Virus record (IMG/VR): IMGVR_UViG_3300036766_001792 | Span: 1-55,514 of that record | Strand: one strand, 5' to 3' | Length of the DNA stretch: 55,514 bases | DNA from: a virus | Lineage: Duplodnaviria > Caudoviricetes | Shown: piece after piece, positions 1,241 through 53,601 of the stretch | Layout: each line of letters opens with the position of its first letter | Position numbering within the stretch: the stretch's first letter is position 1 | Notes under the pieces: generated by a model | Databases searched by the model: none | Seen by the model: only the letters and a program-made list of their open reading frames with translations | Told to the model about the DNA's origin: nothing | Position numbers and translations under genes: made by a program

Positions 1241-1909
1241 CTACTTCCTGCGCTGCGTGGCCTTCCTCAGCTCGGTGGCCCGCCTCGAGACCTCGGCGGA
1301 CGCCTTGCGCACCTTGCGCATCGCGCCGTCGAGCCTCTTGTGCTCCGACGGCCACTGGCCCGTCGACTCGGCCTCGGCCCATGCGCAGAACGAGTGCGGG
1401 TCGTCGACCTTGCCCTCCATGCGCCCGACGCACGCCCTGTGCCCGCCTGGACCGTCCTTCTCTATGCCGGATGAGATCTTCGACCAGAAGCCGCGGTGGC
1501 TGTCGGGCGTCCACCCGCGCTGCGCCATCATGCGCCTGTACTGGTTCCTCTGCGAGGCGGAGATCTTGCCGCCGCACTTGCTGCATGCCGACGCCTTGCC
1601 CACGTTGTCCAGCGAGTCCCCTATCTCGGCGAGCGACGCCTGCGCGTCCTTCAGGTCCTGGATGGTCGCGAAGATGTCCCCCGCCAGGCCGCCCTTCTTG
1701 AACACACCCGGCACCTTGCCGGCGACGTCGATGTCGCCCACGCCGTGGACCTCGGCGTACTCCTCGTCTGGGTCCTCCGTCTCGTCGGTGTAGATGCTGT
1801 CGGTCGGCTCGACCGAGTCGCCGGGCTCCCACAGGTCCTCGAACGTGGTCCCGGTCTCCTCAGTCTCCTTCTTGGCCTTCGCGAGCGCGTTCCTCAAGAA
1901 GCTCATCAT
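1241..1909 (-). CDS. Hypothetical protein with Cys motif, possibly head-associated
   Basis: CSKC and ACVGRMEGKVDDPHSFCAW...TGQWP, resembling a module recalled from actinophage head-maturation proteins. Confidence 0.55.
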   Translation of the reverse strand: MMSFLRNALAKAKKETEETGTTFEDLWEPGDSVEPTDSIYTDETEDPDEEYAEVHGVGDIDVAGKVPGVFKKGGLAGDIFATIQDLKDAQASLAEIGDSLDNVGKASACSKCGGKISASQRNQYRRMMAQRGWTPDSHRGFWSKISSGIEKDGPGGHRACVGRMEGKVDDPHSFCAWAEAESTGQWPSEHKRLDGAMRKVRKASAEVSRRATELRKATQRRK

Positions 1910-6304: not shown

Positions 6305-6640
6305 CTATGCCCTCTCGCTCAGCAGCTCCCCCGGCAGGGTGTCAGGAATCGGGCCGGTGCCGTCGTACGCCAGGCACGCGTAGATGTTGTCGTCGAGCAC
6401 GAAGACGAGCCGCCTGCCGTCCTCGTCCCATGCCTCCTCGGCCAGGTACGGCTGAAACAAGACCTTCCGCCCGGGCTTGATCGCCTCGTACGCGTCGGGT
6501 CCCCGCGCCAGCACCAGGCCGACCGCCGAGATCTCCTGCGCCGAGTCGGGGATGAGTATCCCACCACCGACGATCTCCTCGCCGGGGCGCACGACCTCCA
6601 GCAGGACGAGGTTATCCCTCGGGCTGTACTTCTTCGCCAT
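6305..6640 (-). CDS. groES: Co-chaperonin GroES-like (copy 1)
   Basis: PRDNLVL...GGGILIPDSAQE...GLVLARGP...GRKVLF. Confidence 0.85.
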   Translation of the reverse strand: MAKKYSPRDNLVLLEVVRPGEEIVGGGILIPDSAQEISAVGLVLARGPDAYEAIKPGRKVLFQPYLAEEAWDEDGRRLVFVLDDNIYACLAYDGTGPIPDTLPGELLSERA

Positions 6641-22356: not shown

Positions 22357-22814
22357 CAGTACCCGTCCTCCTGTCGCTTCTTGTTGACGGCGGCCTTCGC
22401 GAGATAGAGCGCGCCCAGGTCGTACTCCGACTCCACCTCAATGATCAGGAGCGCCTCCAGCAGGAAGTGCAGGATGTCGACCAGCTCCTCGATGACGCCG
22501 GCCTCCTCCTCGTCGGTTAGCTCGCGGCCGTAGTCGCCCTTCCACCGCTTCCACGGCAGCCATGCCTTCAGCTCCGACGCCTCCATCATGATAGCGTCGG
22601 CCATCTCGACGAGTCGCAGCGATGCCGGAAGATCCGACTCGCCCAGCCGCTCCTGTATCGCGTCGAGGACGCTCCGCTGCTCGTCGAGTATGATCTGCAG
22701 AACCCCGTCCCTCGGTGGCCACACGGCGTGCGCGCCCTGCAGCCTGTGCTTGAGCAGCATCAGCCCGCCGTCGTAGTCGAGCTCCCCATGACTCTCCCTC
22801 AACCGGTCACCCAT
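22356..22814 (-). CDS. All-alpha dimeric dUTPase/dCTPase (MazG-like)
   Basis: EASEL..LPWKRWK, EELVDILHF, Y..K..VN..RQEDGY. Confidence 0.85.
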   Translation of the reverse strand: MGDRLRESHGELDYDGGLMLLKHRLQGAHAVWPPRDGVLQIILDEQRSVLDAIQERLGESDLPASLRLVEMADAIMMEASELKAWLPWKRWKGDYGRELTDEEEAGVIEELVDILHFLLEALLIIEVESEYDLGALYLAKAAVNKKRQEDGY

Positions 22815-23185
22815 CTGCCGCGTGCCCTCCTCTCCTCCGTGTCCTCCGAATGCGAATCGACGAACTCGTGTATCCGCATGTTCAAAGCAGGTCTATTGGC
22901 CGCCTTGAGCTCCAGCTCGCTGACCCGCAGGATCGGGATCCCGGCGTTGACCAGTATCCAGATGTCCCGCTCGGCGTCGCGCTTCCGCTTCCGCGGCCCT
23001 GCGTGCGCCGCCTTGCCGTCTGCCTCCAGGCCGACCCAGAGCTCGTCCACCAGGACGTCGAGCACGTACCACCCGACCCTGACCTCGGCCCGCACCTCCA
23101 GCCCCATACCCCTCAGCAGGTCCATGAGGCGCCTGTGCGGCCGCGTCAGCGCAGTCTGCGGCGGCTCACGGTCCCAGACGGGCAT
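22799..23185 (-). CDS. DUF559 / Vsr-like endonuclease
   Basis: YVLDV..GLEADG..H...DAERD..GIPILRV. Confidence 0.8.
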   Translation of the reverse strand: MPVWDREPPQTALTRPHRRLMDLLRGMGLEVRAEVRVGWYVLDVLVDELWVGLEADGKAAHAGPRKRKRDAERDIWILVNAGIPILRVSELELKAANRPALNMRIHEFVDSHSEDTEERRARGRWVTG

Positions 23186-27402: not shown

Positions 27403-28365
27403 CTATTTCGGGAACCCGACAGCCGCCACATCGACCGCCTGGGACACCACGACCTTCAGCTCTATGCACCCGCACTCCTGGACGTCCTTCTTGCCTGGCG
27501 GCAGGATGGCCGCCCTGACGCGCATCCTGTGGCCGAGCAGCCTCGCGGCCTGCGCCATGCCCCTCTGGCCCGCCTCGTCCATGTCGAGCGCGAGCACGAC
27601 CCCCCTCGTGCGTCCGGCGAGGAGCGACGCCTGCACCCTCGAGATCTGCGCCCCGAGCAGGGCGACCCCGGGTATCCCGCACTGCCACAGCCACATGGCG
27701 TCCAACGGCCCCTCGACGAGCACTATCTCGTCCGGCGCGTCCGGCATCATGTCCCAGCCGAACAGCACCTCGCCCGCCTTGAGGCCGGCCGTGTAGACGT
27801 ACTTGGGCGACGCGAGCGGGTTGACGTACCGGTACACCAGCCCCTCTATCCTGCCGCGGAACGTGATCGGCATCACGACGGCTGCCCGCGCCTTGTCCAT
27901 CCCCACGTCCCACGCCCTCAGCGTCGCGGGCTCGAACCCCCGCCCCTCCATGTACTTGTACGTCCGCCCGTGCTCGTACTCCGGCATCGCCGGCGGCGCC
28001 TCCGCCACGGCGGCGCCCGTACCGGCTATGGCCTTCCTCAGGGCGTCGTTGCCCGGGTCCGGCGCCTTGACCGACCCGAGCCAGACGTCGGCCTCGGCCT
28101 CCGTTATCCCCTTGACCCTCGCAACGAGCTCGGCGAGGCGGCCGACCCCGCAGCTGGCGTAGCACACCCAATAGCCGTTCTCGATGGCGACGGCGAACGA
28201 CGGGTCGTGGTCGTCGTGGAATGGGCAGAGGCACATCGCCCACGGGTCGCGCTTCTTCTGCTCAACGCGCACGACCTCGATGCCGAGCGTCTCGAGGACC
28301 GCGAGGACGTCGGGCCCTGACGACGCCGCCACCAGCTTGCGCAGCCTGTCGGCCCCGCTAGCCAC
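27403..28365 (-). CDS. DNA primase (CHC2 zinc finger + TOPRIM)
   Basis: CPFHDDHDPSF..C..C, PKY, VEGPLD, LDMDEAG. Confidence 0.95.
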   Translation of the reverse strand: MASGADRLRKLVAASSGPDVLAVLETLGIEVVRVEQKKRDPWAMCLCPFHDDHDPSFAVAIENGYWVCYASCGVGRLAELVARVKGITEAEADVWLGSVKAPDPGNDALRKAIAGTGAAVAEAPPAMPEYEHGRTYKYMEGRGFEPATLRAWDVGMDKARAAVVMPITFRGRIEGLVYRYVNPLASPKYVYTAGLKAGEVLFGWDMMPDAPDEIVLVEGPLDAMWLWQCGIPGVALLGAQISRVQASLLAGRTRGVVLALDMDEAGQRGMAQAARLLGHRMRVRAAILPPGKKDVQECGCIELKVVVSQAVDVAAVGFPK

Positions 28366-28783
28366 GTCGCAACCTCGGCGGACCCAGCGCCGCCGCCAGC
28401 TTCAGCAGCTTGCCCCTGTCCTTCACCTCGCACTCCCAGATCACGTGCACCGTCCAGCCGAGCGCCCTGAGCTCGGCCGCGACCCGCGCGTCGCGCTCGA
28501 CGTTCCTCTCGAACTTCTCCTCCCAGAACCTGATGTTGGACGCGACCCCCTTCTTGTGCGTATGAACCGGGCACCTGTGCCAGAAGTCTCCGTGCACGAA
28601 GACCGCGTGCCTCCTGGCGCGGAAGCAGATGTCGGGCTTGCCCGGGAGGTCGGCGCAGCACACCCGGAAGCGGTAGCCCCACGCGTGCAGCGCACGCCTG
28701 ACCGCCAGCTCCGGGCCGGTGTCGCGCCCGCGTATGCGCGACATCATCCTGCTCCTCACCGCCTGGCTGACCCGATCCGCCAC
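28358..28783 (-). CDS. vsr: Very short patch repair endonuclease
   Basis: RSRMMSRIRGRDTGPE, LPGKPD, FVHGDFWH, NVERD, IWEC. Confidence 0.95.
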   Translation of the reverse strand: MADRVSQAVRSRMMSRIRGRDTGPELAVRRALHAWGYRFRVCCADLPGKPDICFRARRHAVFVHGDFWHRCPVHTHKKGVASNIRFWEEKFERNVERDARVAAELRALGWTVHVIWECEVKDRGKLLKLAAALGPPRLRRG

Positions 28784-31839: not shown

Positions 31840-32592
31840 CTAGAAGTCCTTCGTCTTCAGCTTGCCGATGACCCGCCGACCGAACCGCGTCTGCAGCTCG
31901 ACCGTCGGCCGCGCCACCACGCCCTCGGCCTCGAAGTCGCCCCAGGCCGAGCGGATCCCGTTGCGCACCAGGACGGCCGCCTCGGGCAGCGTCGCCGCCC
32001 TCACGACCGGGACGTGCGGGATCCCCAGCCTGCTGGCTATCTCGTAGACGTCCCCGCGCTTCAGCCACACGTCGCCGACCCTGACGTCGAACAGCACGAA
32101 GCCGACGCCGTCGGGGATGTACTTGTGGCCGACCTTCTGAATCCGCTCGCCGAACCCCTCTCCGTAGAGGGTGATCGGGTACGGCACTACGCACTCGCAC
32201 CGGTACGGGACCAGGCTCGATCCCGATGCCTGTGGATCATACCACCCTGTCCCACCGCAGCGCTCGCAGCCCTTCTGGCCGCGCCACAGCGCCCGCAGCT
32301 TATCGACCGTGAACAGCCCCGTGAGCTTGTCCACCAGGAACGGTGGGATGTCCGCGGCGGCCGTGCGCCCGTATATCCCAAGGAACCAGTCGAGGAGCGG
32401 GTGATCTGTCGGCTCCGAATACGACTCCAGCGCCACGCGGATGTTCATCCCATCCACCTTCTCGGTCAGCTCCCACTGGCAGTCGCGGAGGTACTCGAAC
32501 TCCGGCTGACTCCAGCCCCACGGAATGACCTTGTGGTCCTCGCCGCGGACCCACAGCGTCTTGATCTTCGGATACTCAGGTGCGTCCATCAC
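31840..32592 (-). CDS. RNA ligase (Rnl2-like nucleotidyltransferase domain)
   Basis: YPKI, TEKVDG, LYGE, FVLFDV, EGVV, KLK. Confidence 0.9.
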   Translation of the reverse strand: MMDAPEYPKIKTLWVRGEDHKVIPWGWSQPEFEYLRDCQWELTEKVDGMNIRVALESYSEPTDHPLLDWFLGIYGRTAAADIPPFLVDKLTGLFTVDKLRALWRGQKGCERCGGTGWYDPQASGSSLVPYRCECVVPYPITLYGEGFGERIQKVGHKYIPDGVGFVLFDVRVGDVWLKRGDVYEIASRLGIPHVPVVRAATLPEAAVLVRNGIRSAWGDFEAEGVVARPTVELQTRFGRRVIGKLKTKDF

Positions 32593-39926: not shown

Positions 39927-40195
39927 ATGCCTCCCTTGACCGGCGCCGCCATCAGGTCCCCGACGGCCTCGACGATGGCGCCCAGCACCTCGGCCGCGTG
40001 CTCCCGGTAGATCTCGACGCCTATCCTCGTCGGCAGGAACGAGTCCCCGCCGGCCGGGAGCCAATACTTCCTGACACTGACCGAACGCACCCCGGTCTTC
40101 GGGTTCGTCTGCGTCGAGACCCGGAGCTGCGTCGTCGGATTGATCATGAAGGTACCAAAAACACGCGCCGCTATTTTAGTCTTCTTTGCGATCAT
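39923..40195 (-). CDS. PC4/PdbP-like ssDNA-binding protein
   Basis: VSVRKYW...FLPTRIGVEI. Confidence 0.75.
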   Translation of the reverse strand: MIAKKTKIAARVFGTFMINPTTQLRVSTQTNPKTGVRSVSVRKYWLPAGGDSFLPTRIGVEIYREHAAEVLGAIVEAVGDLMAAPVKGGI

Positions 40196-40559
40196 AAGGC
40201 CAGCCTCCTCGTGCGTACGTCCGTCGGGCGTGGCAGTTAGCACATACGACCTCGCACTTCTCGACCTCAGCTTGAGCTTTCGTTAGACTTCCCCTTGTAC
40301 TTGGGGCCCAATGCTTTCGTGATGGCGGCAGATGATCAAACTCAAGCACTATCGGATCGGCCTCCCCACAGTCAACGCACGGGTGGGTCGCCTTGTACTC
40401 CCGTATCCATGCCCTAACCTGCGCCATACGCACCCGCCGCATTGCCTTGGCGTGTTCATGGTGATCCCGTTCCCAAGCCCGGGCTTTGGCGATAATCTTC
40501 TGGCGATTAGCCAAATAGTACTCATGAGCCGCCGCTGACCTCTCAATCGCATTCCTCAT
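40176..40559 (-). CDS. HNH endonuclease
   Basis: CVDCGEADPIVLEFDH...CEVVCANCH; lower GC. Confidence 0.9.
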   Translation of the reverse strand: MRNAIERSAAAHEYYLANRQKIIAKARAWERDHHEHAKAMRRVRMAQVRAWIREYKATHPCVDCGEADPIVLEFDHLPPSRKHWAPSTRGSLTKAQAEVEKCEVVCANCHARRTYARGGWPYDRKED

Positions 40560-40699
40560 CTTGCCCCCTCCGCCCACCATGTGGACGCCGTCGGCGGGTT
40601 GAGGTTCGGCGGCTCGGTGCGCGCGAACTCGCCCACCGTTATGGCGGCGACCGCAAGTGCCACCGCGATCAGAAGCTTACCGGCTCGCTTGCCAGCCAT
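40556..40699 (-). CDS. Small membrane-anchored protein
   Basis: One TM segment. Confidence 0.45.
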   Translation of the reverse strand: MAGKRAGKLLIAVALAVAAITVGEFARTEPPNLNPPTASTWWAEGAR

Positions 40700-41075
40700 A
40701 CTTCCTCCGCGGCTTGCGCCGCCCGGATGCCCGCCGCCTCGCCGGCCGGAAGTCACTGATCTTGTGCCTGCTCTTGCCGAACCCCGCCTCCTCCTCGCGC
40801 CTGAGCGTCTCCATGCACTCGTGGCACGGCGTGCCCTCGCGCAGCACCGGTACCATCATCGCGCCGGGGACCTCGTCGTCTGGCTTGTTCTTGTCGAGGT
40901 ACACCCGGACCCGCATCGCCGGGACGCCTGGTGGGCACCGCTCGTCGACCATGAACGTGTGGGCCTCGCCGCCGCCTCCGAGCACTATGCCCCTGAATGG
41001 GCACCGCCCGTTGGCGAGCCCGATGTCGGCCATCCCTACCGCCTGCTCCTCTGCCTTGCTATCTTCGTCGCCCAT
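40677..41075 (-). CDS. Hypothetical protein
   Basis: GAGGAG RBS. Confidence 0.55.
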   Translation of the reverse strand: MGDEDSKAEEQAVGMADIGLANGRCPFRGIVLGGGGEAHTFMVDERCPPGVPAMRVRVYLDKNKPDDEVPGAMMVPVLREGTPCHECMETLRREEEAGFGKSRHKISDFRPARRRASGRRKPRRKYGWQASR

Positions 41076-41077
41076 GT

Positions 41078-41230
41078 CTAGCTCCTCTGCTGCTCGTCCA
41101 GCGCCTGGAGGACCGCCATAACCAGGCGGAATCTCCCGCGCTTCTCCGGCGGTATCTGAGCCTCCAGCCTGGCGTCCTTCTCCTCGCGCAGCTGCCTCAG
41201 CCATACCGGTTCCGCATTCGGGTCAACCAT
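41078..41230 (-). CDS. Small hypothetical protein
   Basis: GGGAG RBS after TATAAT. Confidence 0.5.
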   Translation of the reverse strand: MVDPNAEPVWLRQLREEKDARLEAQIPPEKRGRFRLVMAVLQALDEQQRS

Positions 41231-41321
41231 AATCACTGTCTCCCTGCTACCTTGTCCCTTACCTACTATTATAATCGGCACTTTCGCCAAAACACGAGCG
41301 CCCTGGGACAAGAGATTCGGG

Positions 41322-41359
41322 CCTCTACCTATAATAACGCACGAACAGGCCAAACGCTA
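41322..41359 (-). promoter_or_regulatory. 38-bp repeated promoter/operator, copy 1
   Basis: 32/38 identical to 43388-43425. Confidence 0.7.
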
Positions 41360-41872
41360 TGGCCTACCTCGCGCAATATACCGGCTCCGTGCATCAGCGT
41401 CCCACTTCGTCTTTTCGAACGTCTCGACGAGGTACTGCGTGATCACCTCGACCAAGCCTGGGCCTCCGTCCGGCTTGTAGTCCTGGACGCACCCGATGAT
41501 CTCGCGGGCGTAGAACCCGCACTCGCGGACCCTCTCGGCCGCCTCGCGCGCCGGCTGCTCGCGCTCCTGCTGCTCCCTGAACAGCCTGGCCGCCTTGATC
41601 GGCTCGTAGTCCTCCATGCTGAGGATCGCGTTCTTGGCGTTGAGGACGCTGTGCAAGTAGGTCTCGACGCTCCCGTCGTGGTTGACGTACTGGACCTTGA
41701 CGTAGTGGCGCTTGGCACGGCTGCCGTAGAAGGTGCGTCGACCTTCGAAGACGTCCGGCTCCGCGACCACCGCGAAGCGCCAGTAGCCCTGCGGCGAGTA
41801 GCGCGACGGCCGCCCGTTGCACACCATGACCTCCTGCCCTACCTCGAACTCCCGTCTCGTTGTCTTAGCCAT
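41357..41872 (-). CDS. Hypothetical protein
   Basis: GAGGAG RBS; SH3/Tudor-like FEVGQEV start. Confidence 0.65.
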   Translation of the reverse strand: MAKTTRREFEVGQEVMVCNGRPSRYSPQGYWRFAVVAEPDVFEGRRTFYGSRAKRHYVKVQYVNHDGSVETYLHSVLNAKNAILSMEDYEPIKAARLFREQQEREQPAREAAERVRECGFYAREIIGCVQDYKPDGGPGLVEVITQYLVETFEKTKWDADARSRYIARGRP

Positions 41873-41957
41873 GTGCCGTCTCCTCTGCCTTCTGCCCTAT
41901 CGTGCGCCCACCAGGCGGTGGGCACGCGGAGGGGCAGTAAGCCCGCTCCGTTGTGTC
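41873..41957 (-). promoter_or_regulatory. Two-hairpin leader motif, copy 1
   Basis: GGGCTTACTGCCCCT hairpin, second hairpin, GGGCAGAAGG, RBS. Confidence 0.55.
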
Positions 41958-42998
41958 TCAGTTGACCCCCTGCCTGATGCTGACCGCCCGCACCTTGAGG
42001 GCGTCCAGGTCGGCCTGCATCCTCTCGTAGATGCCGGCCGTCGTGAGCAGCATGCTCGCCGCCTGCGACTTGATGTCCGCGCCGGCGCCTGCGAGTGTGG
42101 AGAGGAACTGCCCGTCGACCTTCGGACGGTGGAACCCGTCCTTGGTGGCCGTCGGGACGTACTTGTGGTCGACCCACGCCGTGACCGCGTTCAGCAGCCC
42201 CCAGGCCGACTCCTCGCCGTCGCCCCTGTAGAGGCTGACTATGGCGTCGACCTTCTCCTGCCGTCGCGTGTCCTCCTCGCCGGGCTTGTCCTCCTTCTGG
42301 GGGAAGAGGGCGTTCAGCAGCGGCTCGATCATCGGCAGCCCGTCCGTGTCGGCGAGCTGGTTCATGGCGATGCCGTAGAGCTTGAACGTGTCGACGCTGA
42401 TCCCCATGATCTGGCGGGCGACCGCGATCTTGCGGTTGATGTCGCCGGTGTGGGGGATGTGGACCGTGAGCTCCTTCTCGCCGTGCCAGAGCGCCGCCTG
42501 CAGGGTGTTCCAGCAGACTACCCGCTCACTCGTCGGGATGGCCCTGGCCGCCGACAAGCCGTCGTGCGTCGTCGTGAAGAGAATGAACCTCTTGCTGACG
42601 TCGCCGCGCTTGCCGATGATCATGTCCTCCGGGATCCGACACAGCGCCCAGAACGTCTGGCCGCCGCGAAGCGAACCAGCCGCCTCGTAGCCGAGCTCCT
42701 CGGTCGCCACCAGATGGTCCAGGAAGCTGATGCCGTCCGCGTTCTGGATGGGCCGGTACGCGCGCCCGACGTTGCCGAGGACCGCGCCGTCGGTCTCGCG
42801 AACGACCGCGAAGCGCCCGGGCATCTCGACGAACCTGCCGCCCAGACCCCTTGTGTACGCCTTCCGGATGCCCACCGTCCAGTCGGTGCCAGACAGCGCG
42901 CATACCTCAGCTGAGGACATCGCGCCCTTGACCACCGTGCCGAGACCGTGCCACGCCGGTTCGTCAGCGTACGCTGCCGATTCGACCTTGTGTGCCAT
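41958..42998 (-). CDS. DUF932 family (TIGR03299-like) phage/plasmid protein
   Basis: MAH..E..PAWHGLG, Y.PIQN, EAAGSLRGG, HDG, RVVCWNTL, HTG, WGLLNAVT. Confidence 0.9.
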   Translation of the reverse strand: MAHKVESAAYADEPAWHGLGTVVKGAMSSAEVCALSGTDWTVGIRKAYTRGLGGRFVEMPGRFAVVRETDGAVLGNVGRAYRPIQNADGISFLDHLVATEELGYEAAGSLRGGQTFWALCRIPEDMIIGKRGDVSKRFILFTTTHDGLSAARAIPTSERVVCWNTLQAALWHGEKELTVHIPHTGDINRKIAVARQIMGISVDTFKLYGIAMNQLADTDGLPMIEPLLNALFPQKEDKPGEEDTRRQEKVDAIVSLYRGDGEESAWGLLNAVTAWVDHKYVPTATKDGFHRPKVDGQFLSTLAGAGADIKSQAASMLLTTAGIYERMQADLDALKVRAVSIRQGVN

Positions 42999-43080
42999 TC
43001 TTGTACCTCCTCAGATACCTTCTGCCCGTTCACCCGGCGGCCGAAGCCCGGTCGCCGTGTCAAGGGGCGGAAAGCCCCTG
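42999..43080 (-). promoter_or_regulatory. Two-hairpin leader motif, copy 2
   Basis: GGGCTTTCCGCCCCT hairpin, second hairpin, GGGCAGAAGG, RBS. Confidence 0.55.
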
Positions 43081-43380
43081 CTAGCCTACCTGAACCACCC
43101 CGCCGCAGCGGGTGCAGTCCCAGTGGTGCTTGTTGCAGTGCGTGTGCACGCCGTCGGAGACGTAGCGCGGCTCGAGTCCGCCGTCGTCGCACTGGCACCA
43201 GACTGACGTCGCCCGCGCAGCCTTCGCCGACTCGCGGTCAATCACCATGGTCCTGCCCATCTTCCCTAGGCGCCTCGCCCTACGCGCGTCGAACGCCGCG
43301 TGCAGCTCGCCTTCATTCTTATATCCGAACAGCCCGTCATCTACCATCTGCCTTGTCCCTTCCGTAACCGCGACCGCCAT
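43081..43380 (-). CDS. Zn-finger hypothetical protein
   Basis: WCQC...KHHWDCTRCG..VQVG. Confidence 0.65.
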   Translation of the reverse strand: MAVAVTEGTRQMVDDGLFGYKNEGELHAAFDARRARRLGKMGRTMVIDRESAKAARATSVWCQCDDGGLEPRYVSDGVHTHCNKHHWDCTRCGGVVQVG

Positions 43381-43387
43381 CGGCGGC

Positions 43388-43425
43388 CCTCTACATACTA
43401 TAACGCACGAACTGCCGAAACGCTA
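43388..43425 (-). promoter_or_regulatory. 38-bp repeated promoter/operator, copy 2
   Basis: See 41322-41359. Confidence 0.7.
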
Positions 43426-43584
43426 CGCCGACAGCCGCTCCTGCCTCCCGCGGCCGTAACCGGCCAAGAAGGCGAGCCGCTCGTCGCGGCCCCAGAACAG
43501 GGACGCCTCGCCCCTGAGGGCCTGCCACGCGTCCTCGCACCTGCTCTTGCCGTAGTGCCTGCCTGTCTCGTAGATGTGCACCAT
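43423..43584 (-). CDS. Small protein (53 aa, below ORF-track cutoff)
   Basis: GGGAGG RBS; MVHIYETG...AFLAGYGRGRQERLSA; its TAG begins the repeat, as in copy 1. Confidence 0.6.
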   Translation of the reverse strand: MVHIYETGRHYGKSRCEDAWQALRGEASLFWGRDERLAFLAGYGRGRQERLSA

Positions 43585-43621
43585 GTCCGTACCTCCCAAC
43601 CGTGGCCGTCATGTTCGGCCC

Positions 43622-43690
43622 TTCATTATAATAATCGGCCGAACGGGTCAAACGAGAGCGGCCCGAACGGCCAAAAGCACAAAAAGATCG
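43622..43690 (-). promoter_or_regulatory. Putative strong early promoter
   Basis: T-tracts, TTGACC, then GATTATTATAAT in AT-rich intergenic DNA. Confidence 0.55.
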
Positions 43691-43695
43691 CAGAA

Positions 43696-43914
43696 TTATC
43701 GCCGGCGCCGTATCTGGCGCCTCGGAAGCGGGCCCGGGGCTCCCTCATCGCCGCCGCCCATCACGTCCAGGACCTCGCACACCAGGACCGCCTTCCCCTC
43801 GGCCGCGAGCGCCACCGCGCGCCTGTCGCGCACCGACGAGTCCTCGAACTTCTCGATCCGCATCCGCTCGTTGTCGAACGAAATGACCCTGTACTGGTAC
43901 CGCGGGGCCGTCAC
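43696..43914 (-). CDS. Small hypothetical protein
   Basis: GTGA overlap. Confidence 0.5.
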   Translation of the reverse strand: MTAPRYQYRVISFDNERMRIEKFEDSSVRDRRAVALAAEGKAVLVCEVLDVMGGGDEGAPGPLPRRQIRRRR

Positions 43915-44633
43915 GGCAGCACCTGCGACGCGACCAGGAACGACCGCCCGTCCGCCGACAGCCCGATCGGTAGGTACCCCCGCTCAATGATGCTGAGCAG
44001 CGGGAGCCACACCGCGGGGGCCTCGTCCCATGCTTCCCACAGTCCCATGACCCACACCGGCCTCAGCCACTTGTACGCCGACGCGTGCGCCGGCTCCGAG
44101 ACGTTCTGCAGGTGCCCGAACGCCAGCTGCCTCAGCATGTCATACCGGTCATCCGAGTGCTCCCTCAGCTGCCTGTTCGCGTCGTCGTACCTGGCGTGCC
44201 ACGCCGGGTGCAGCGGCTGCTCGAACCACCTGTCGAGCGGGACCCACGCCACGCGCCCGCCGACCGGCTCCTGCTCGGTGGCCGACCGCGGGATCGGCGA
44301 CGTCTCGGCCATGGCCTTGAGGTGCGCCCTCGCGGCTGCGGAGCACGCCTTCAGCGGCGACTCGACCGGATAGAACATCCTGGCCGACCACACCCTCCAG
44401 AACGCCTGCGCGGTCGCGCGCGCTGGCCATTCTCCCAGCCCCTCGTCTCGGCTCACCGCCTCGAGCCACTTCCAGAGGACGTTCCGCCTGGTCCCGTCCT
44501 GGTATGTCTCGGTCTCCTTGAGGATCTGGGCGAAGCACGTCTGCGTCCATACCTGCAGACTGGACGAGCGCAGGTCCACGCCTAGGCCCTGCGCCACGGA
44601 GATCAGGTGTCCCCTCTCGGTCTCGAACGCCAT
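43911..44633 (-). CDS. Hypothetical Trp-rich protein
   Basis: AGGGGG RBS. Confidence 0.65.
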   Translation of the reverse strand: MAFETERGHLISVAQGLGVDLRSSSLQVWTQTCFAQILKETETYQDGTRRNVLWKWLEAVSRDEGLGEWPARATAQAFWRVWSARMFYPVESPLKACSAAARAHLKAMAETSPIPRSATEQEPVGGRVAWVPLDRWFEQPLHPAWHARYDDANRQLREHSDDRYDMLRQLAFGHLQNVSEPAHASAYKWLRPVWVMGLWEAWDEAPAVWLPLLSIIERGYLPIGLSADGRSFLVASQVLP

Positions 44634-44642
44634 CCAATCCCC

Positions 44643-45335
44643 CTACGCCAGCGTCGGCCTGTGCGATACTACGAAGACGTTCCCTGGCGTTACCCCGCAC
44701 GGCCAGAACCCCATGAACACCACCTCAAGAAGATGGCCCCAACCGGAGTCCTCCTCGACCGCCATGTCCCACAGCGCGCGCTGCGCTATGAGCCTCACGT
44801 CCTGAAGCGCCAACCGACCGATCCTGTCCATGTCCGCGCGCCTCGAAGCTACCACGGCCGTGAGGATGTCGTCGAGCCTCTGGAGGTACGTGTTGCCCTC
44901 CGCCTGCGCGCCCATCGACTGCCGCGCCTGCACGTGCCGCGCCTGCCAGGCGCCGCCAAGCATCCTCGGCGGCTCCCAGAGTATCCTGTCTACCCCCTCC
45001 AGCTCCATGCCCTGCTTCCCGGCCCACTCCATGATCGGCCCGGCCACGCCCGCGAGTGGCTTGTTCGGGACGAAGAGCTCCATGGTCCCGAGGGTATCGA
45101 GTGCGCGCGCGATCCGCTCCCCACCCACCGGGTAGGCGGAGAAGAAGTCCGTGAGCATCGCCAGCCGCTGCTTTTCCGGCAGCCGGCGCATGTCTTCTAC
45201 GACGTTGTTCCAGCAGCACATCTGGGCGACGCGCTGCGCCTTCTTGTCCCCGTGCCTCCAGGCGGCGGCTAGCCAGGCCTCCCTAGCGGCATGTGCGTCG
45301 AACGGCCGCGCCGAATTAACGTCCAAGGCGCTCAC
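44643..45335 (-). CDS. Hypothetical protein
   Basis: C-terminus similar to that of the neighbouring gene. Confidence 0.6.
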   Translation of the reverse strand: MSALDVNSARPFDAHAAREAWLAAAWRHGDKKAQRVAQMCCWNNVVEDMRRLPEKQRLAMLTDFFSAYPVGGERIARALDTLGTMELFVPNKPLAGVAGPIMEWAGKQGMELEGVDRILWEPPRMLGGAWQARHVQARQSMGAQAEGNTYLQRLDDILTAVVASRRADMDRIGRLALQDVRLIAQRALWDMAVEEDSGWGHLLEVVFMGFWPCGVTPGNVFVVSHRPTLA

Positions 45336-45693
45336 CCATCGTTATGGCCTTGCTGTCCTGCGTCCAGTACAGCGTGCCGCCGAGGGCCCGCAGGGCGCGC
45401 TCCAGCTCCACGCGCTGGTCCAGGCTCGGCAGGTCGTCGAGGTATATCTGCATGTGCAGCGACTCACGCAACAGGCAGACGACTGTCAGCCACGTCGGCC
45501 CCTCGCTGACCGAGACCCGGAGCGTCTTGCCGTGGTAGACCTCGCTGCAGTGCTGCTCCCCCTTCCCCATGACGCATCGGCAGCCGATGCTCGCGCAGAG
45601 CAACAGCGCGCGACAGATCGCGTTCTGCACCTGCTCGAACGCGGCCTCCAGCGCCGGATAGCTGTTCTGGATCCAGACGTCGTAGTGTTGCAT
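45316..45693 (-). CDS. Hypothetical protein
   Basis: TGATG overlap; GGAGG RBS. Confidence 0.55.
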   Translation of the reverse strand: MQHYDVWIQNSYPALEAAFEQVQNAICRALLLCASIGCRCVMGKGEQHCSEVYHGKTLRVSVSEGPTWLTVVCLLRESLHMQIYLDDLPSLDQRVELERALRALGGTLYWTQDSKAITMGERLGR

Positions 45694-48275
45694 CAGCAGC
45701 CCCCCTCCATATACGCGCACGGGCACACCGTTACGCCCTCGTGCCGCAGCTCGAAGTGCAGATGATAGCCGTGCGAATGCCCCGTGTTGCCGCAGAGCCC
45801 GATCCCGTCGCCGCGCGTCACCTCGTCGCCGACGCCGACCATAAGCGAGCCGGCCTTCATATGGCCGTACTTCGTGACGTACTCGCCGAATGCCTTGTCC
45901 CTAATCTCGACCGTGTAGCCGTAACCCATCGCCGAGTCACCCCCCTGCGCCGGGTCGCTGCGCGGATCGAGCCCGGCGAACGTGACGTAGCCGTCGTGCG
46001 CCGCCATGATGGTCTCGCCGCCGGAGCCCGGGGTGCAGCTGATGTCAATTGCCGAGAGGCCCTCGTACGCCATGTGCCACGCGCAGTCGCCGGTGAGCGG
46101 CGCCTGCAGCGGCCAGGATAGCCAGAACGTCGGCAGCGGGAACGGTAGTGGGCCCATGGCCACCAGGCACTGCGTGAAGCGGGCGATCCACTGCCTCGAC
46201 AGCTCACCGCTATCCCCCCAGCCCGGGTGCCCGCTATCCCCCGCTACGGCCTTGTACAGCTCGAAACCGGTCAGCCCGTCCGCCTTGTTCGCGTCCCACG
46301 CCGGCTTCATGGACGCCATGGCGACGCTCGCGTTGGTCGCCGGGTCGAGCAGCTGGGCGCACGTCATGCCTGTGCCCTGGCCGCCGCACCTGTTGAGCAT
46401 GAACAGGCCGAACGAGCAGCAGCACGTCGCCGGGTGGTCGCTCTGTGCGCACGTCGCGCACTGCGTGCAGTCGAGCGCCGGGTTCGGGCAGCAGTCCCCC
46501 GCGGCGTCCGCGTAACCCGCCGACTCACGCACCATGACCGCAATGTAGAACGCCATCTCCTCCCAGTCCGCCGGCTGGCCGGCCTCCACCCAGACGAGGT
46601 TGAGGATGCCGTTGCACACCTCGTAGGTCCCATCCGGGCAGCTGAGCGTAGTCGTCTGCCCGCAGTCCCCGACCCCACCAGGACCCGGCGGGACGACCGG
46701 TCCCGGGCCTGGGCCAATCGGTATCGGCATGCAAGGCGAGACGAGCGCACCCATGGAAGGCACTATCGGGTGCAGCATGTCCGACGCGGCGCCTCCCGGC
46801 CCGGTAGGCGGGAGTATGGCCGATGCCGGCGCAACAATCAGCAAGAACCGCCCGCACTCGTTCATGGCCGAAAACCCGCCGTAGAAGGTAAGCTGAAAAG
46901 TATATCCGTCGGCGTCAGCCGCGCTGGGCGTCCCGTTCAGGCGGAGGACCTTGTGCGACAGCCCCGTAACCGGGTCGACGTAGTCCTCGAGCTCGTCCTC
47001 GACGCGCGTGCTGAAGCCCGCGCTGGCATTCAGCAGAATCGGGCTGGAGCCGACGTTGAGCCAGCCCGGGTAGAACGACGGAAAACTGTGATCCTCGTAC
47101 GATGCGCAAGGGCGCATGCCGTACAGAAATATCCACGCGGGCAGCCTGCCAAGCCGCCAGCTCTCGACCGCCAGGCGCGCCTCCCACGGCTGACCGGCGA
47201 CCAGCGCCGGTGCCTGCCCGAGGGACCACCAGACAAGCTCGCCTACCGGGCCCAGGAGGCATGGTCCACCCTCGTATATGTCCAGGTCCCAGAAGTCGAT
47301 CGGCGTGAGCGCCTCCCCGACAGCGGCGCAGAGGCCCTTGGACTCGATCGCGTCGAGGTCGTCGAACATGACCAGGCCGGCCGTCGGATGCCACGTGCAG
47401 TCGCGCCTGGCGCCCTGATCCGGCATGGTGACGTCGAAGCCGTTCACCACATACTGAACCATGCCCTTGAGCGCCTCCGCATCAGCAGAGGTCGCGCGGA
47501 GGTCGAAGACAAACTCCCCCCGGATCATGGTCTGGGTCCCGTAGACGGTCTTGTGCCAAAGCCAGGCCGTCGAGGTGTCCGATGTCCCGTTGGCCGGATC
47601 GACGCGGTGCGCGAGGTTGAGGACCGCATTGCAGAAGACATTATCCGTCGACGCCAGCACGCCGAAGCCATTGTGGCCAGGCATCAAGTTATTGTAGAGC
47701 CCTGACCAGTCAGCCAGCGGCTCGGCGGGTGTGACGAGGTAGATCGGACGCAGCCGACCCACCTGCGCGACGCGCGACGATGTTATCAGCGCCGACAGCG
47801 CGCGCGCCGACGCGGCGCGGGTGCCGAGCCAGGGGGAGAAATACATCTGCACGTTCAGGACGTCAGCCCACCGCGGCTCAATGGTCATATCGGCCATGTA
47901 GAAGTCGATCTTGGTCCCCAAGGGGTCAAGCAGCCTCATGATGCCAGCCCAGCTCGAGCCCTCGGTCATCGGCACCTCGTGGGCGCCCCTGCCGGCGTCG
48001 AACATGACGCCTACCTTCAGGCCGTAGCCGAGCAACTCGTCGAGCCCGCCGGCCAGCCCCAGCATGTGCTGCAGCCTCTGCCAGTCCGCGCCAGCCGGAT
48101 CCGGGAGCCACTCGGACAGCAGCTGGTCCTTGTCGTTCAGCTTGAACACGAGGCCGGTGAGCCCGCAAGCCTGCGCACGCCCGGCGTAGTCGGCTGCGGA
48201 CGCCGACAGCGCGGTCCGCACCAGCGCGTACTTGCCCGGCGTGACCCTGTCCTTGAGCACCGGCGCGTCTGGCAC
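45693..48275 (-). CDS. Large tail-associated multidomain cell-wall hydrolase (SLT + M23 peptidase)
   Basis: VRES...SFGLFMLN...LLDPATNA (SLT); H...AIDI, AAHDGYV, YGH, HLHFE (M23). Confidence 0.85.
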   Translation of the reverse strand: MPDAPVLKDRVTPGKYALVRTALSASAADYAGRAQACGLTGLVFKLNDKDQLLSEWLPDPAGADWQRLQHMLGLAGGLDELLGYGLKVGVMFDAGRGAHEVPMTEGSSWAGIMRLLDPLGTKIDFYMADMTIEPRWADVLNVQMYFSPWLGTRAASARALSALITSSRVAQVGRLRPIYLVTPAEPLADWSGLYNNLMPGHNGFGVLASTDNVFCNAVLNLAHRVDPANGTSDTSTAWLWHKTVYGTQTMIRGEFVFDLRATSADAEALKGMVQYVVNGFDVTMPDQGARRDCTWHPTAGLVMFDDLDAIESKGLCAAVGEALTPIDFWDLDIYEGGPCLLGPVGELVWWSLGQAPALVAGQPWEARLAVESWRLGRLPAWIFLYGMRPCASYEDHSFPSFYPGWLNVGSSPILLNASAGFSTRVEDELEDYVDPVTGLSHKVLRLNGTPSAADADGYTFQLTFYGGFSAMNECGRFLLIVAPASAILPPTGPGGAASDMLHPIVPSMGALVSPCMPIPIGPGPGPVVPPGPGGVGDCGQTTTLSCPDGTYEVCNGILNLVWVEAGQPADWEEMAFYIAVMVRESAGYADAAGDCCPNPALDCTQCATCAQSDHPATCCCSFGLFMLNRCGGQGTGMTCAQLLDPATNASVAMASMKPAWDANKADGLTGFELYKAVAGDSGHPGWGDSGELSRQWIARFTQCLVAMGPLPFPLPTFWLSWPLQAPLTGDCAWHMAYEGLSAIDISCTPGSGGETIMAAHDGYVTFAGLDPRSDPAQGGDSAMGYGYTVEIRDKAFGEYVTKYGHMKAGSLMVGVGDEVTRGDGIGLCGNTGHSHGYHLHFELRHEGVTVCPCAYMEGGC

Positions 48276-50720: not shown

Positions 50721-51248
50721 CTACTTCACCCCCTTATGCCGGCCGCAGACGCACCCGTCAACGCACTTACGTCCGTGCCTATATCCGGCCTTGGCTGTAA
50801 CCTGCCGCCGCTCGTCCGGACTCTTAGCCGCCCACCAAGCGGTTTTTCGGGCCGAGACTAACTGACGGTGTTCCAAAGTCTGATTCCGCTTCCGGCAAGT
50901 CTCAGCCGCAGCGTCCCGGACGGCCTGACCCTGCGTAGTTCGACGCCCGTCACCCCATCCCCAGCCGTGATAACCGGAATGACACCCATTATGCGCGGCC
51001 GCTTGATTCTCAGGGCTGTTATTATCATGATCCCCATCGATGTGATGCACGACCAACAACAGTTTCGTGCTTCTCGCGCCTTCTACCGTCCAAGGCGCTT
51101 CAACAGGTTCACCGCAAAAATGACACGGCCAGGGTCCTGGTCCGTGATAGGCGAAGAAGATCCACTTCCAACGGTTCTTTTCGCGAGCCGTTCGGTGATC
51201 CCGCGGACTGGCTGGAAGCTGATTCGATGCTCGTCGGTTGGTCCCCAC
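50721..51248 (-). CDS. HNH endonuclease
   Basis: CHFC..VHHIDGDHDNNSPEN...HNGCH..H; lower GC. Confidence 0.85.
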   Translation of the reverse strand: MGTNRRASNQLPASPRDHRTAREKNRWKWIFFAYHGPGPWPCHFCGEPVEAPWTVEGARSTKLLLVVHHIDGDHDNNSPENQAAAHNGCHSGYHGWGWGDGRRTTQGQAVRDAAAETCRKRNQTLEHRQLVSARKTAWWAAKSPDERRQVTAKAGYRHGRKCVDGCVCGRHKGVK

Positions 51249-51790
51249 TGGTCTAGCGCCTCCATGTGCCGTTTCGTACCGTAGCCCACGTTATCACACC
51301 ACAGGTATTCAGGAAACCTATCGTGCATCGGCCCGCGCATCAGCCGATCCCTGGCGTCCTTGGCGACGATGGACGCCGCCGACACGCCCCTGACCCTGGC
51401 GTCGCCCTTGACTACCGCCAGCCACGCGTGGCCCATCTGCGAGTTGCCGTCGACCACAACTGGGACCCTCTTGGCCTCCGGCGCACGCTCGTAGAGCCTC
51501 TCCAGCGCACGCTCCATGGCGAGCACCGTGGCTCGCGTGATGCCGAACTGGTCGATCTCCGCCGCGCTGGCCTGGCCGATGCCGAACGGCATGGCCTCGA
51601 CTATCCTCGCGCCCGTGCGCTCTATGGCCTTCCGCGTCAGGGTCTTCGAGTCCCGGATTCCGGAGCTCCATGGTAGCCCCTCGACGAGGGGATCGTACAG
51701 TACCGCGGCGGCCACAACCGGCCCCGCGAGCGAGCCGCGCCCGACCTCGTCGATGCCGACGAGCCTATCCGCGACCCATCTGGTATCCAA
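51083..51790 (-). CDS. rnhB: Ribonuclease HII
   Basis: GIDEVGRGSLAGPV, RDSK, VDG, KGD, AASIVAK..RD, GYGT..H, HRISF. Confidence 0.95.
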   Translation of the reverse strand: MDTRWVADRLVGIDEVGRGSLAGPVVAAAVLYDPLVEGLPWSSGIRDSKTLTRKAIERTGARIVEAMPFGIGQASAAEIDQFGITRATVLAMERALERLYERAPEAKRVPVVVDGNSQMGHAWLAVVKGDARVRGVSAASIVAKDARDRLMRGPMHDRFPEYLWCDNVGYGTKRHMEALDQWGPTDEHRISFQPVRGITERLAKRTVGSGSSSPITDQDPGRVIFAVNLLKRLGR

Positions 51791-52977: not shown

Positions 52978-53601
52978 CTACTTCCCCATGCCCTCAATCT
53001 TGTCTATCTTGTGCCAGAACCCTGGCCCCGGGTCACGTCCAACCGCGTAGTCGTTGAGCTCGCGCTCGCCGAAGCGTACGACCGTCAGGCCATAGTGCCC
53101 AGTCAGACACCCGTCCCTAATGCGGTCGCGCTGCTGAATCTCAGGCCGACTATGCCAGTAACTGCCGTCCGCCTCGACCGCCAACTTCAGGGCCGGCACA
53201 TAGGCGTCCACCAGGTACGTGTACCACGGGTGCTCGTCCAGCACCTCGTACCCCGGCAGGAGCGCCGGGAGCAGCGCCTCGCGGAGGATGCACTCGATTC
53301 CCGTTGGCCCTGACCGGTGGCGCGCAAGCCGGGTAGTTCGCGCTATATTTGCAATGACCTTCGGACTTGCCCTCATGGAAGCCCGGTGCTCCAGAGACTT
53401 TGGTCTCCCCGTCATGGTCGCGCTTGTAGCCGCATTATGCTCCGACGAGTGAGGTTTGCCAAGCAAACTAGCGCTAATGGCGGCGCCCGTCCGCGCGCGC
53501 CAGTCTGGATCCTGCCAGAACGCGAGCATGACCGCGCGATGCTTGGCCAAACACTCCGGGTCCTGCCAACCCCGCCTTGCGCCTGCACTTGTGCCACTCA
53601 T
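52978..53601 (-). CDS. NUMOD3-repeat + DUF559 endonuclease
   Basis: GKPHSSEH and GRPKSLEHR repeats; VDAYV..AVEADGSYWH..DRIRD..VVRF. Confidence 0.85.
   Translation of the reverse strand: MSGTSAGARRGWQDPECLAKHRAVMLAFWQDPDWRARTGAAISASLLGKPHSSEHNAATSATMTGRPKSLEHRASMRASPKVIANIARTTRLARHRSGPTGIECILREALLPALLPGYEVLDEHPWYTYLVDAYVPALKLAVEADGSYWHSRPEIQQRDRIRDGCLTGHYGLTVVRFGERELNDYAVGRDPGPGFWHKIDKIEGMGK

Follow-up and report, generated by a model that had tools for sequence, protein, structure and literature searches.

The early region of phage T7 is laid out with RNase III sites, which the phage uses between its early genes, and phage HK022 carries the put sites, which are two-hairpin antitermination sites. 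According to the substrate features set out in PMC1540722, the substrates of E. coli RNase III comprise about two helical turns, possibly formed by stacked short helices, and an internal loop in such a substrate confines cleavage to a single strand, leaving a hairpin that protects the 3' end. Promoter-early stem-loops (PeSLs) of T4-type phages are defined by a sigma70-like promoter combined with a terminator stem-loop (motif description in PMC2839356), and the SAS and ESAS motifs of Cluster K mycobacteriophages are described as having an unknown function, with a role in translation initiation suspected (PMC3203893, in its treatment of these motifs). Here, we examined a repeated element in both intergenic gaps beside a DUF932 gene of an uncultured phage, IMG/VR virus record IMGVR_UViG_3300036766_001792 (Duplodnaviria; Caudoviricetes). 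The whole stretch of DNA analysed, hereafter the window, is the entire record of 55,514 bases, with a completeness estimate of about 70%. The two spacers are best explained as paralogous copies of a portable RNA cassette placed between early-region cistrons of a large, uncultured phage of high GC content; to our knowledge, almost nothing is known about how early-gene expression is organised in such phages. In kind, the element would belong to the repeated intercistronic regulatory hairpins of phage early regions, and it falls into no named family.

The original prediction, made from the letters of the window alone, described a twice-repeated RNA leader in both gaps, and all of its parts were located on the minus strand, to which all coordinates of this region refer. 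Each gap presents the same order of parts: a stop codon, hairpin 1 (GGGC-loop-GCCCCU), a second hairpin, three bases, the 10-mer GGGCAGAAGG, the Shine-Dalgarno (SD) sequence GAGGAG and a start codon 7 nucleotides (nt) past the SD. Copy B precedes the DUF932 gene (41958..42998, 346 amino acids (aa); PF06067, E 8.9e-43; phrog_1221). Its gap (43080→42999) extends from the stop codon (43081-43083) of a 99-aa open reading frame (ORF; 43081..43380), which lies 2 nt before hairpin 1, to the DUF932 ATG (42996-42998), and the element itself occupies 43006..43080 (covariance-model match of 90.5 bits, as a training sequence). Within it, hairpin 1 (GGGGC-UUUCC-GCCCC; 43064..43078, with the sequence GGGCUUUCCGCCCC at 43077→43064) provides, with its loop and 3' arm, the 5' strand of a predicted lower helix, hairpin 2 (43031..43060) corresponds to the upper helix of a predicted long hairpin, and the linker AAC (43030→43028) is followed by the 10-mer (43018..43027), the 3' strand of the lower helix, and by the SD of DUF932 (43007..43012), which is predicted to be unpaired. 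Copy A lies in the gap 41957→41873, between the DUF932 stop codon (41958-41960) and the ATG (41870-41872) of a 171-aa ORF (41357..41872), and occupies 41876..41948 (77.1 bits, likewise as a training sequence). It consists of hairpin 1 (GGGC-UUACU-GCCCC, sequence GGGCUUACUGCCCC; 41931..41944), hairpin 2 as the upper helix (41901..41928; a 9-bp stem and two further pairs), the linker AUA (41900→41898), the 10-mer (41888..41897) and the SD of the 171-aa ORF (41880..41885). Apart from DUF932, the flanking ORFs matched no family in the Pfam and PHROGs scans.

Both the exact 10-mer and the exact hairpin-1 pattern GGGCTTNCNGCCCCT occur twice in the 55,514 bases of the window, in each case only in the elements. 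When one mismatch was allowed, the 10-mer matched 11 times against 6.6 expected, which is not significant (11 was reached in 9 of 100 shuffles). Local alignment of the two gaps scored 22, modestly above chance (shuffle mean 14.8; 37 of 2000 dinucleotide shuffles scored as high). The collinear pattern with its 22 specified bases was found at nine loci in 241 million metagenome records, none of them convincing. Because this pattern is so rare in the metagenome collection, the presence of two copies in one 55-kb window, each just 5' of an SD, is not due to chance. Since the similarity of the gaps exceeds chance only modestly and their fold stability is ordinary for this GC content, the case depends on the shared linear order of the parts and, most of all, on what related genomes show. 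Separately, the most stable 70-nt window of the genome (8640-8709, minus strand; z -4.6, the top of the stability scan) contains a look-alike hairpin, with a helix GCUUUCGGCC/GGCUGAAGGU resembling the lower helix; it is located inside a small ORF starting at an ATGA overlap (8794) and was taken as chance.

Two related contigs carry the element. The closer one (G001) was found via DUF932 (98% protein identity), and its DNA is roughly 90% identical to the window in this region (about 80-94%). The more distant one (G002) was found via the DNA polymerase and shares 61% identity in DUF932; in the polymerase search, G001 reached 92% and G002 62%, and all others at most 33%. A search with the 171-aa ORF detected only G001. 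Three copies are present in G001, namely B', A' and a further copy C, which resembles B; a fourth exact 10-mer of this contig lies in coding DNA, where the other parts are absent. A covariance model (R1) was built from the five copies of the window and G001, using the long-hairpin structure. In G002, R1 detected a copy (61.9 bits) directly after DUF932, that is, in the same place as copy A. The original prediction had proposed a covariance model of its two copies and a search of phage genomes as a check, and had counted a lack of further homologues against itself; homologues were found in both contigs.

The minimum-energy fold computed by RNAfold is one long bulged hairpin of about 60 nt, not two hairpins, in all six copies, and the same structure is the RNAalifold consensus. 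Its lower helix of about 10-11 bp pairs the loop and 3' arm of hairpin 1 with the 10-mer. Above it comes a small internal loop in which the 3-nt linker forms the 3' side (3x3 in the predicted folds of the A-type copies; 1x1 mismatches in those of B and C), and the upper helix is the variable hairpin 2, with 9-12 bp. The minimum-energy folds contain 21-26 pairs and the consensus contains 23. Copy A folds with -39.7 kcal/mol (z -2.9) and copy B with -37.7 kcal/mol (z -2.5). That the 10-mer can pair with the loop and 3' arm of hairpin 1 had been proposed in the original prediction as an alternative state; the pairing stands, but it is the predicted ground state in both window copies, and the two-hairpin form is the one of higher energy. 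Keeping the 10-mer unpaired would cost 3.6 kcal/mol in A, 8.8 in B, 4.0, 5.4 and 4.1 in the G001 copies and 2.1-3.3 in the G002 copy. In the five copies of the window and G001, the SD is predicted to be unpaired, 3-7 nt past the foot of the hairpin.

Conservation was assessed on an alignment of the six copies, which form five distinct rows and represent three element types from three related genomes. Across the 23 consensus pairs, 87% of the 115 cells are paired, a share which falls to 35-46% once the 3' partners are shifted by 1-3 columns, and both sides have changed in 6 of the 23 pairs. Neither the paired fraction nor the covariation score was reached in any of 500 shuffles, although such shuffles overstate support for related sequences. 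Hairpin 2, which had been regarded as unrelated between the two copies, does align there, with compensatory changes. Two changes are informative because both arose within the A lineage: i) A-U to G-C in the upper helix, and ii) an A.A mismatch to C-G in G002, joining the hairpin-1 loop with position 7 of the 10-mer. The latter is the only covariation that bears on the long-range helix; within hairpin 1 itself, none of the six pairs has changed on both sides. In comparison with G002, the window shares 79% identity in the element (55 of 70 positions), against 69% in the DUF932 coding DNA and about 55% in the 150 nt that follow the 10-mer. The 10-mer is exact in five of six copies, and GGGC/GCCCC is kept in all six. 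The element is real and very probably functional at the RNA level, as had been suspected from the first two copies: six copies in three genomes keep the fold, and the G002 copy is better conserved than the adjacent coding DNA.

As for this function, we favour an intercistronic signal of the RNase III type which would process or stabilise the mRNA of an early operon, and we assign this reading a probability of roughly 0.35. Before cutting, the mRNA would hold the long hairpin. Host RNase III would then cut in the internal loop, at the linker. The upstream message would thereafter end in hairpins 1 and 2 (after refolding), presenting a barrier to 3' exonucleases, and the downstream message would begin at the 10-mer leader with its SD free. 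Cleavage at the linker would account for the presence of two encoded folds. Since the cassette is repeated, it also marks the sites at which related phages have acquired, lost or swapped gene cassettes. The data show the anatomy of the sequence, its predicted fold with its conservation and covariation, the placement between cistrons and the breakpoints, whereas a single operon transcript, its cleavage and the enzyme responsible are what we infer here. Of the three mechanisms offered by the original prediction (a processing site, a translational switch and a small ribozyme), a processing site best fits the anatomy, namely a bulged two-turn intercistronic hairpin with a free SD. In particular, the pairs of the predicted folds (21-26; 23 in the consensus) amount to the approximately two helical turns stated for RNase III substrates in PMC1540722. 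Literature searches on RNase III sites in Streptomyces or phage operons gave nothing on point, the element and its motif themselves not being among the search subjects, and the DUF932 literature yielded nothing about leaders.

Several observations weigh against processing by RNase III, or against the strength of the data on which the proposal is based. RNase III sites have no positive sequence consensus, and the fit in geometry is thus weak evidence; conversely, the 10-mer and GGGC/GCCCC are invariant in sequence beyond what pairing demands, which an RNase III model does not require. The fold stability is unexceptional for a genome of 66% GC (z of about -3 in a genome-wide scan of 70-nt windows, in which several coding windows equal it), and the G002 copy reaches a z of only -1.5, with 17 of 200 shuffles folding as well. 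The number of pairs changed on both sides is not extreme either (17 of 500 shuffles reach six), and the covariation comprises very few independent contrasts, as only three types of element from three related genomes contribute. Among the phage ORFs scanned with Pfam, none was recognised as encoding RNase III (0 of 8 and 0 of 56), so a host enzyme would be needed. Finally, the SD of G002 lies inside the lower helix, an arrangement which fits translational control better.

The latter possibility would make the element a translational switch, in which pairing of the 10-mer with the loop and 3' arm of hairpin 1, as opposed to formation of hairpin 1, would set how well the following gene is translated. 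Every copy can adopt either fold, and the energy gap between them is only 2.1-4.1 kcal/mol in four of the six. The clearest hint comes from G002, where the 10-mer variant GGGCAGGAGG, located 7 nt before the ATG (a start codon placed by inspection only), constitutes the SD and, in the minimum-energy fold, pairs with the loop CUUCC; this loop has changed from A to C precisely where the 10-mer has changed from A to G. Moreover, in each of the six copies a ribosome at the upstream stop codon would have the 5' arm of hairpin 1 within its footprint, and since this codon lies 2-17 nt before hairpin 1, a terminating ribosome could drive the switch. On the other hand, in the five copies of the window and G001, the SD (GAGGAG or AAGGAG) is located 3-7 nt past the 10-mer and is predicted to be free in both folds, so switching would not mask it. 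Nor does the element contain a junction resembling a ligand-binding one or a conserved unpaired core. We regard a switch as possible but doubtful.

The position of the elements relative to putative promoters bears on both processing and other readings. The 99-aa ORF, element B, DUF932, element A and the 171-aa ORF form a module that is bracketed by two promoter-like 27-mers of the pattern GCGTTTSGSNNGTTCGTGCGTTATNNT, ending in TATAGT or TATTAT, which matched twice in the window and never in 100 shuffles. The 27-mer at 43397..43423, which terminates in TATAGT and lies 16 nt ahead of the start codon (ATG) of the 99-aa ORF, marks the upstream edge, and the one at 41331..41357, right after the 171-aa ORF, marks the downstream edge. 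The two elements would thus be internal spacers of a three-gene module between likely promoters. No promoter-like or terminator-like sites were called by the scan inside the elements, which, together with the bracketing 27-mers and the location of all genes of the window on one strand, fits internal positions in one putative transcript. A promoter inside the element was ruled out by the promoter scan and inspection: in B and C, hairpin 1 is followed by TTGACA or TTGACC, without any -10-like hexamer 16-19 nt further downstream. Sixty nt beyond the downstream 27-mer, a perfect TATAAT box (41268-41273) is followed by a decayed 10-mer, GGGACAAGG (41258→41250), the whole (41250..41273) standing before a 50-aa ORF.

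Further features of these promoter-like sequences were observed. In each copy of the 27-mer, a small stem that differs between the two encloses a conserved TAGCGTTT loop, which overlaps the would-be -35 region, and related sequences precede other genes in G001 and G002. The TATAAT box is contained in the motif TGCCGATTATAATAGTAGGTAAGG (41250-41280, minus strand), and look-alikes occur upstream of different genes in G001 and G002 (L304 1430-1480 and 3515-3550; L303 about 1620-1640, minus strand). This suggests a shared early-promoter cassette that is also shuffled.

The elements could also serve transcriptional punctuation, either as a factor-independent terminator or attenuator lacking a U-tract and grading the expression of the operon, or as a polymerase-directed RNA similar to put of HK022. 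A stable GC-rich hairpin does stand directly after the stop codon, and the place after DUF932 is kept in three phages though the downstream gene differs, as would fit a 3'-end signal of the upstream gene. However, no U-run follows hairpin 1 or the long hairpin, and the terminator scan was silent within the elements. A U-tract is reported as required for one actinobacterial RNA polymerase in PMC3993855, although the host of this phage may differ. A canonical intrinsic terminator was rejected on the same grounds, the hairpins being present but not followed by a U-tract. Two or three tandem copies in one operon would also be unexpected for an antitermination site, and we consider punctuation of either kind rather unlikely.

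Gene gains and losses in the relatives are informative about how the element spreads. In G001, an insertion of 269 bases (an 80-aa ORF with its own SD) separates the stop codon of the 99-aa ORF exactly from the base at which B begins. A second one, of 428 bases (a 102-aa ORF and copy C), is located between the TATAAT box and the leader of the 50-aa ORF, ending at the 10-mer; at this spot, the window has only the decayed 10-mer. In G002, an A-type copy is followed by an unrelated 101-aa ORF, and the region upstream of DUF932 is promoter-like and has no B copy. Because the breakpoints in both relatives coincide with element edges, the element travels as a junction between gene cassettes.

This raises the question of whether the element has any RNA function at all, or whether duplicated junction sequences have been kept alike by recombination and provide short homologies for cassette shuffling, resembling PeSLs in evolutionary role only. 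Besides the homology breakpoints among the three genomes, the phage encodes a UvsX-like recombinase and an exonuclease, and the motif account in PMC2839356 documents that PeSLs of T4-type phages mediate such shuffling. Recombination by itself leaves unexplained why the helices are kept by compensatory changes and why, over the distance that separates the window from G002, the element has diverged less than the coding DNA next to it. The identical blocks are only 10-15 nt long, which is short for homologous exchange, and one of the two indels between the window and G001 has no element of its own. A functionless junction is accordingly improbable in our view. Both roles might be combined in a promoter-less 'cistron junction cassette', a 70-nt RNA that would gate or insulate the translation of the next gene and at the same time act as a preferred crossover site for cassette swaps in large high-GC phages. 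The gating would oppose the SD-like 10-mer to the anti-SD-like hairpin loop and would be reset by a ribosome terminating just upstream. We think it unlikely that all of this holds together; if true, the cassette would be a counterpart of T4 PeSLs or integron attC, built on RNA structure and not on a promoter or an integrase. An attC-type site of an integron proper was also considered and rejected, as no integrase family was found among the 8 and 56 ORFs scanned with Pfam or the 18 scanned with PHROGs, in a window of about 70% of the genome.

The sequence invariance noted above could instead reflect an operator for a phage or host RNA-binding protein, for example a translational repressor or RNA chaperone site, which would recognise either the GGGC-loop-GCCCC hairpin or the single-stranded 10-mer. 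It is the sequence itself that is invariant (10-mer exact in five of six copies, GGGC/GCCCC in six of six), and a position just upstream of start codons in unusually long spacers matches the description of SAS/ESAS in the corresponding part of PMC3203893. With only two to three copies per genome, no candidate binding protein and neighbouring ORFs that belong to no family, we judge an operator to be quite improbable.

The original prediction had recognised no RNA family. A scan of positions 40000-45000 with Rfam 15, on both strands and at E up to 10, agreed with it in detecting no relevant family; the only matches were two microRNA models on the non-coding strand, with 26.1 and 18.1 bits against gathering scores of 107 and 76, respectively. 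A small self-cleaving ribozyme is recommended only by the element being a conserved structured intergenic RNA. No ribozyme or other relevant family matched, and the consensus is a single plain hairpin with mismatches that has neither the multi-helix junction nor the conserved unpaired core generally expected of riboswitches and ribozymes. The suggestion thus found no support and is very improbable, whereas the switch retains some from G002.

Searches for further copies gave little beyond the two relatives. With R1, no third copy was found in the whole window (next-best minus-strand match 12.7 bits, E 0.27) and nothing besides the three copies in G001; twelve loci with a 30-33% identical DUF932 gave 14.8 bits at best (E 0.087). 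The collection scans used exact patterns, which cannot see diverged copies. In viral contigs, the pattern GCCCCT...GGGCAGAAGG matched at least 117 loci, and among the matches listed only those of the window and G001 were real copies, and the GCTT... pattern matched ten, of which three belong to G001 and seven are due to chance. One locus (L103) that looked promising in the viral pattern scan reached only 17.6 bits with the model. In genome contigs, the GCTT... pattern matched at least 120 loci, and among the matches listed none had hairpin 1 plus a ribosome-binding site. The G-variant of the strict 22-base pattern matched G002 and one other locus in viral contigs, and its A/G version matched 35 loci in genome contigs, none of them convincing. 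When R1 was applied to these pattern-selected loci, none exceeded 29.6 bits, and those displayed lacked hairpin 2. The A-type core pattern was found in viral contigs only in G001 and G002, and nowhere in genome contigs. As far as these searches reach, the element is found only in three related uncultured phage contigs.

A weak second R1 match was observed in G002 (28.7 bits; L303 1501-1569, minus strand, equivalent to G002:101305-101373), downstream of a TATAAT box and upstream of an unrelated 224-aa ORF. It comprises a 9-bp look-alike of hairpin 1, a second hairpin, AGAAG..GGAG and an ATG, and the loop of its hairpin 1, CUCC, is complementary to the SD. By its sequence, it is possibly a diverged member of the family.

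The genomic setting is that of a large phage, with all genes of the window on one strand. GC content is 63-68% along the window and GC skew is negative throughout; judged by third-position GC, the minus strand holds essentially all credible genes. These include genes for a terminase, portal, DNA polymerase, helicase, primase, the UvsX-like recombinase, the exonuclease and thymidylate synthase, among others, and further for RNase HII (51083-51790), RNA ligase (31840-32589), a Cpn10-like co-chaperonin (6305-6640; all three minus strand) and Vsr-like and DUF559-like endonucleases. Both elements are located in a stretch of small ORFs without family, between a large M23-peptidase protein (45693-48275) and an HNH endonuclease and replication genes. 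The 99-aa ORF has a Cys/His-rich C-terminal segment (C..C...H.H...C..C-like), and may encode a small protein that binds zinc. Several genes of the endonuclease type (HNH, DUF559/REase-like and Vsr-like) are free-standing, at 40176-40580, 52978-53601, 22799-23185 and 28358-28747 (minus strand) and in L304 at about 1150-1385, and one lies directly upstream of DUF932 in G002; they may contribute to local mosaicism. The relatives measure 100-106 kb at 79-83% completeness, which suggests a genome of about 125 kb. No close cultured phage was found when the region was compared by megablast with 50,697 phage records, and all 503 records of DUF932 relatives in cultured phages are below 60% identity (about 32-34% in the rows inspected).

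The reach of these findings is small, namely three related metagenomic phage contigs and a predicted function. Should the element prove to process or stabilise mRNA, it would offer a defined portable intercistronic part for high-GC hosts and a first handle on mRNA processing in large high-GC uncultured phages. If it is also a crossover point for cassette exchange, the idea of a mobile regulatory cassette would extend beyond T4-type phages.

Compared with known systems, the element shares some features with each and coincides with none. SAS/ESAS resemble it in a conserved asymmetric short motif just upstream of the starts of unrelated genes, in an inverted repeat with a variable spacer before the motif, in unusually long intergenic gaps and in an actinophage-like genome. 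However, the motif sections of PMC3203893 describe a 13-bp SAS consensus which includes the SD and occurs in 11-19 copies per genome, whereas the different 10-mer of our element lies 3-7 nt before the SD and is present twice in the window and in three element-associated copies in G001. Similarly, ESAS has imperfect arms of 17 bp which are 4-13 bp apart, while the outer arms of the element measure about 10-11 nt and are 35-38 nt apart, and the same sections report little support for an ESAS hairpin in mRNA, in contrast to the compensatory changes in the helices of the element. Leader hairpins that sequester the SD are similar in that a pyrimidine-rich segment pairs with a purine-rich SD-like segment by the start codon, which in G002 is the SD; in the window and G001, by contrast, the working SD is outside the helix and predicted to be free.

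PeSLs, as characterised in the pertinent part of PMC2839356, are also repeated short intergenic stem-loop motifs before small genes of unknown function in a variable region, and insertions, deletions and replacements between close relatives break at the motif. The elements, too, are stable intergenic stem-loops before ORFans, with such breakpoints represented by the two indels between the window and G001 and by the different gene in G002. They differ in that no promoter (-35/-10) is detectable in them, the promoter-like repeats being separate from the elements, and in their number of two to three copies per genome against about 50 PeSLs. PeSLs further give rise to mini-circles when their copies recombine. 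Judging from these breakpoints, the element evolves like a PeSL cassette but fails the promoter test by which PeSLs are defined. Finally, the RNase III signals of T7 early genes (R-sites, e.g. R1.1) likewise lie between cistrons of an early region, and the predicted hairpin of the element, with some two helical turns and an internal loop, resembles theirs (substrate features as in PMC1540722). The expected products would also correspond: the upstream RNA would terminate in a hairpin, and the RNA downstream would carry its SD on a short, free leader. The element has no sequence relation to the R-sites. It differs from them in the numerous 1x1 mismatches of its high-GC helix, in the invariance of its 10-mer and in a local hairpin into which the 5' strand can fold in competition, and its cleavage is only predicted. 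On balance, our analysis suggests that among these systems the element would work most like a T7-type processing signal.

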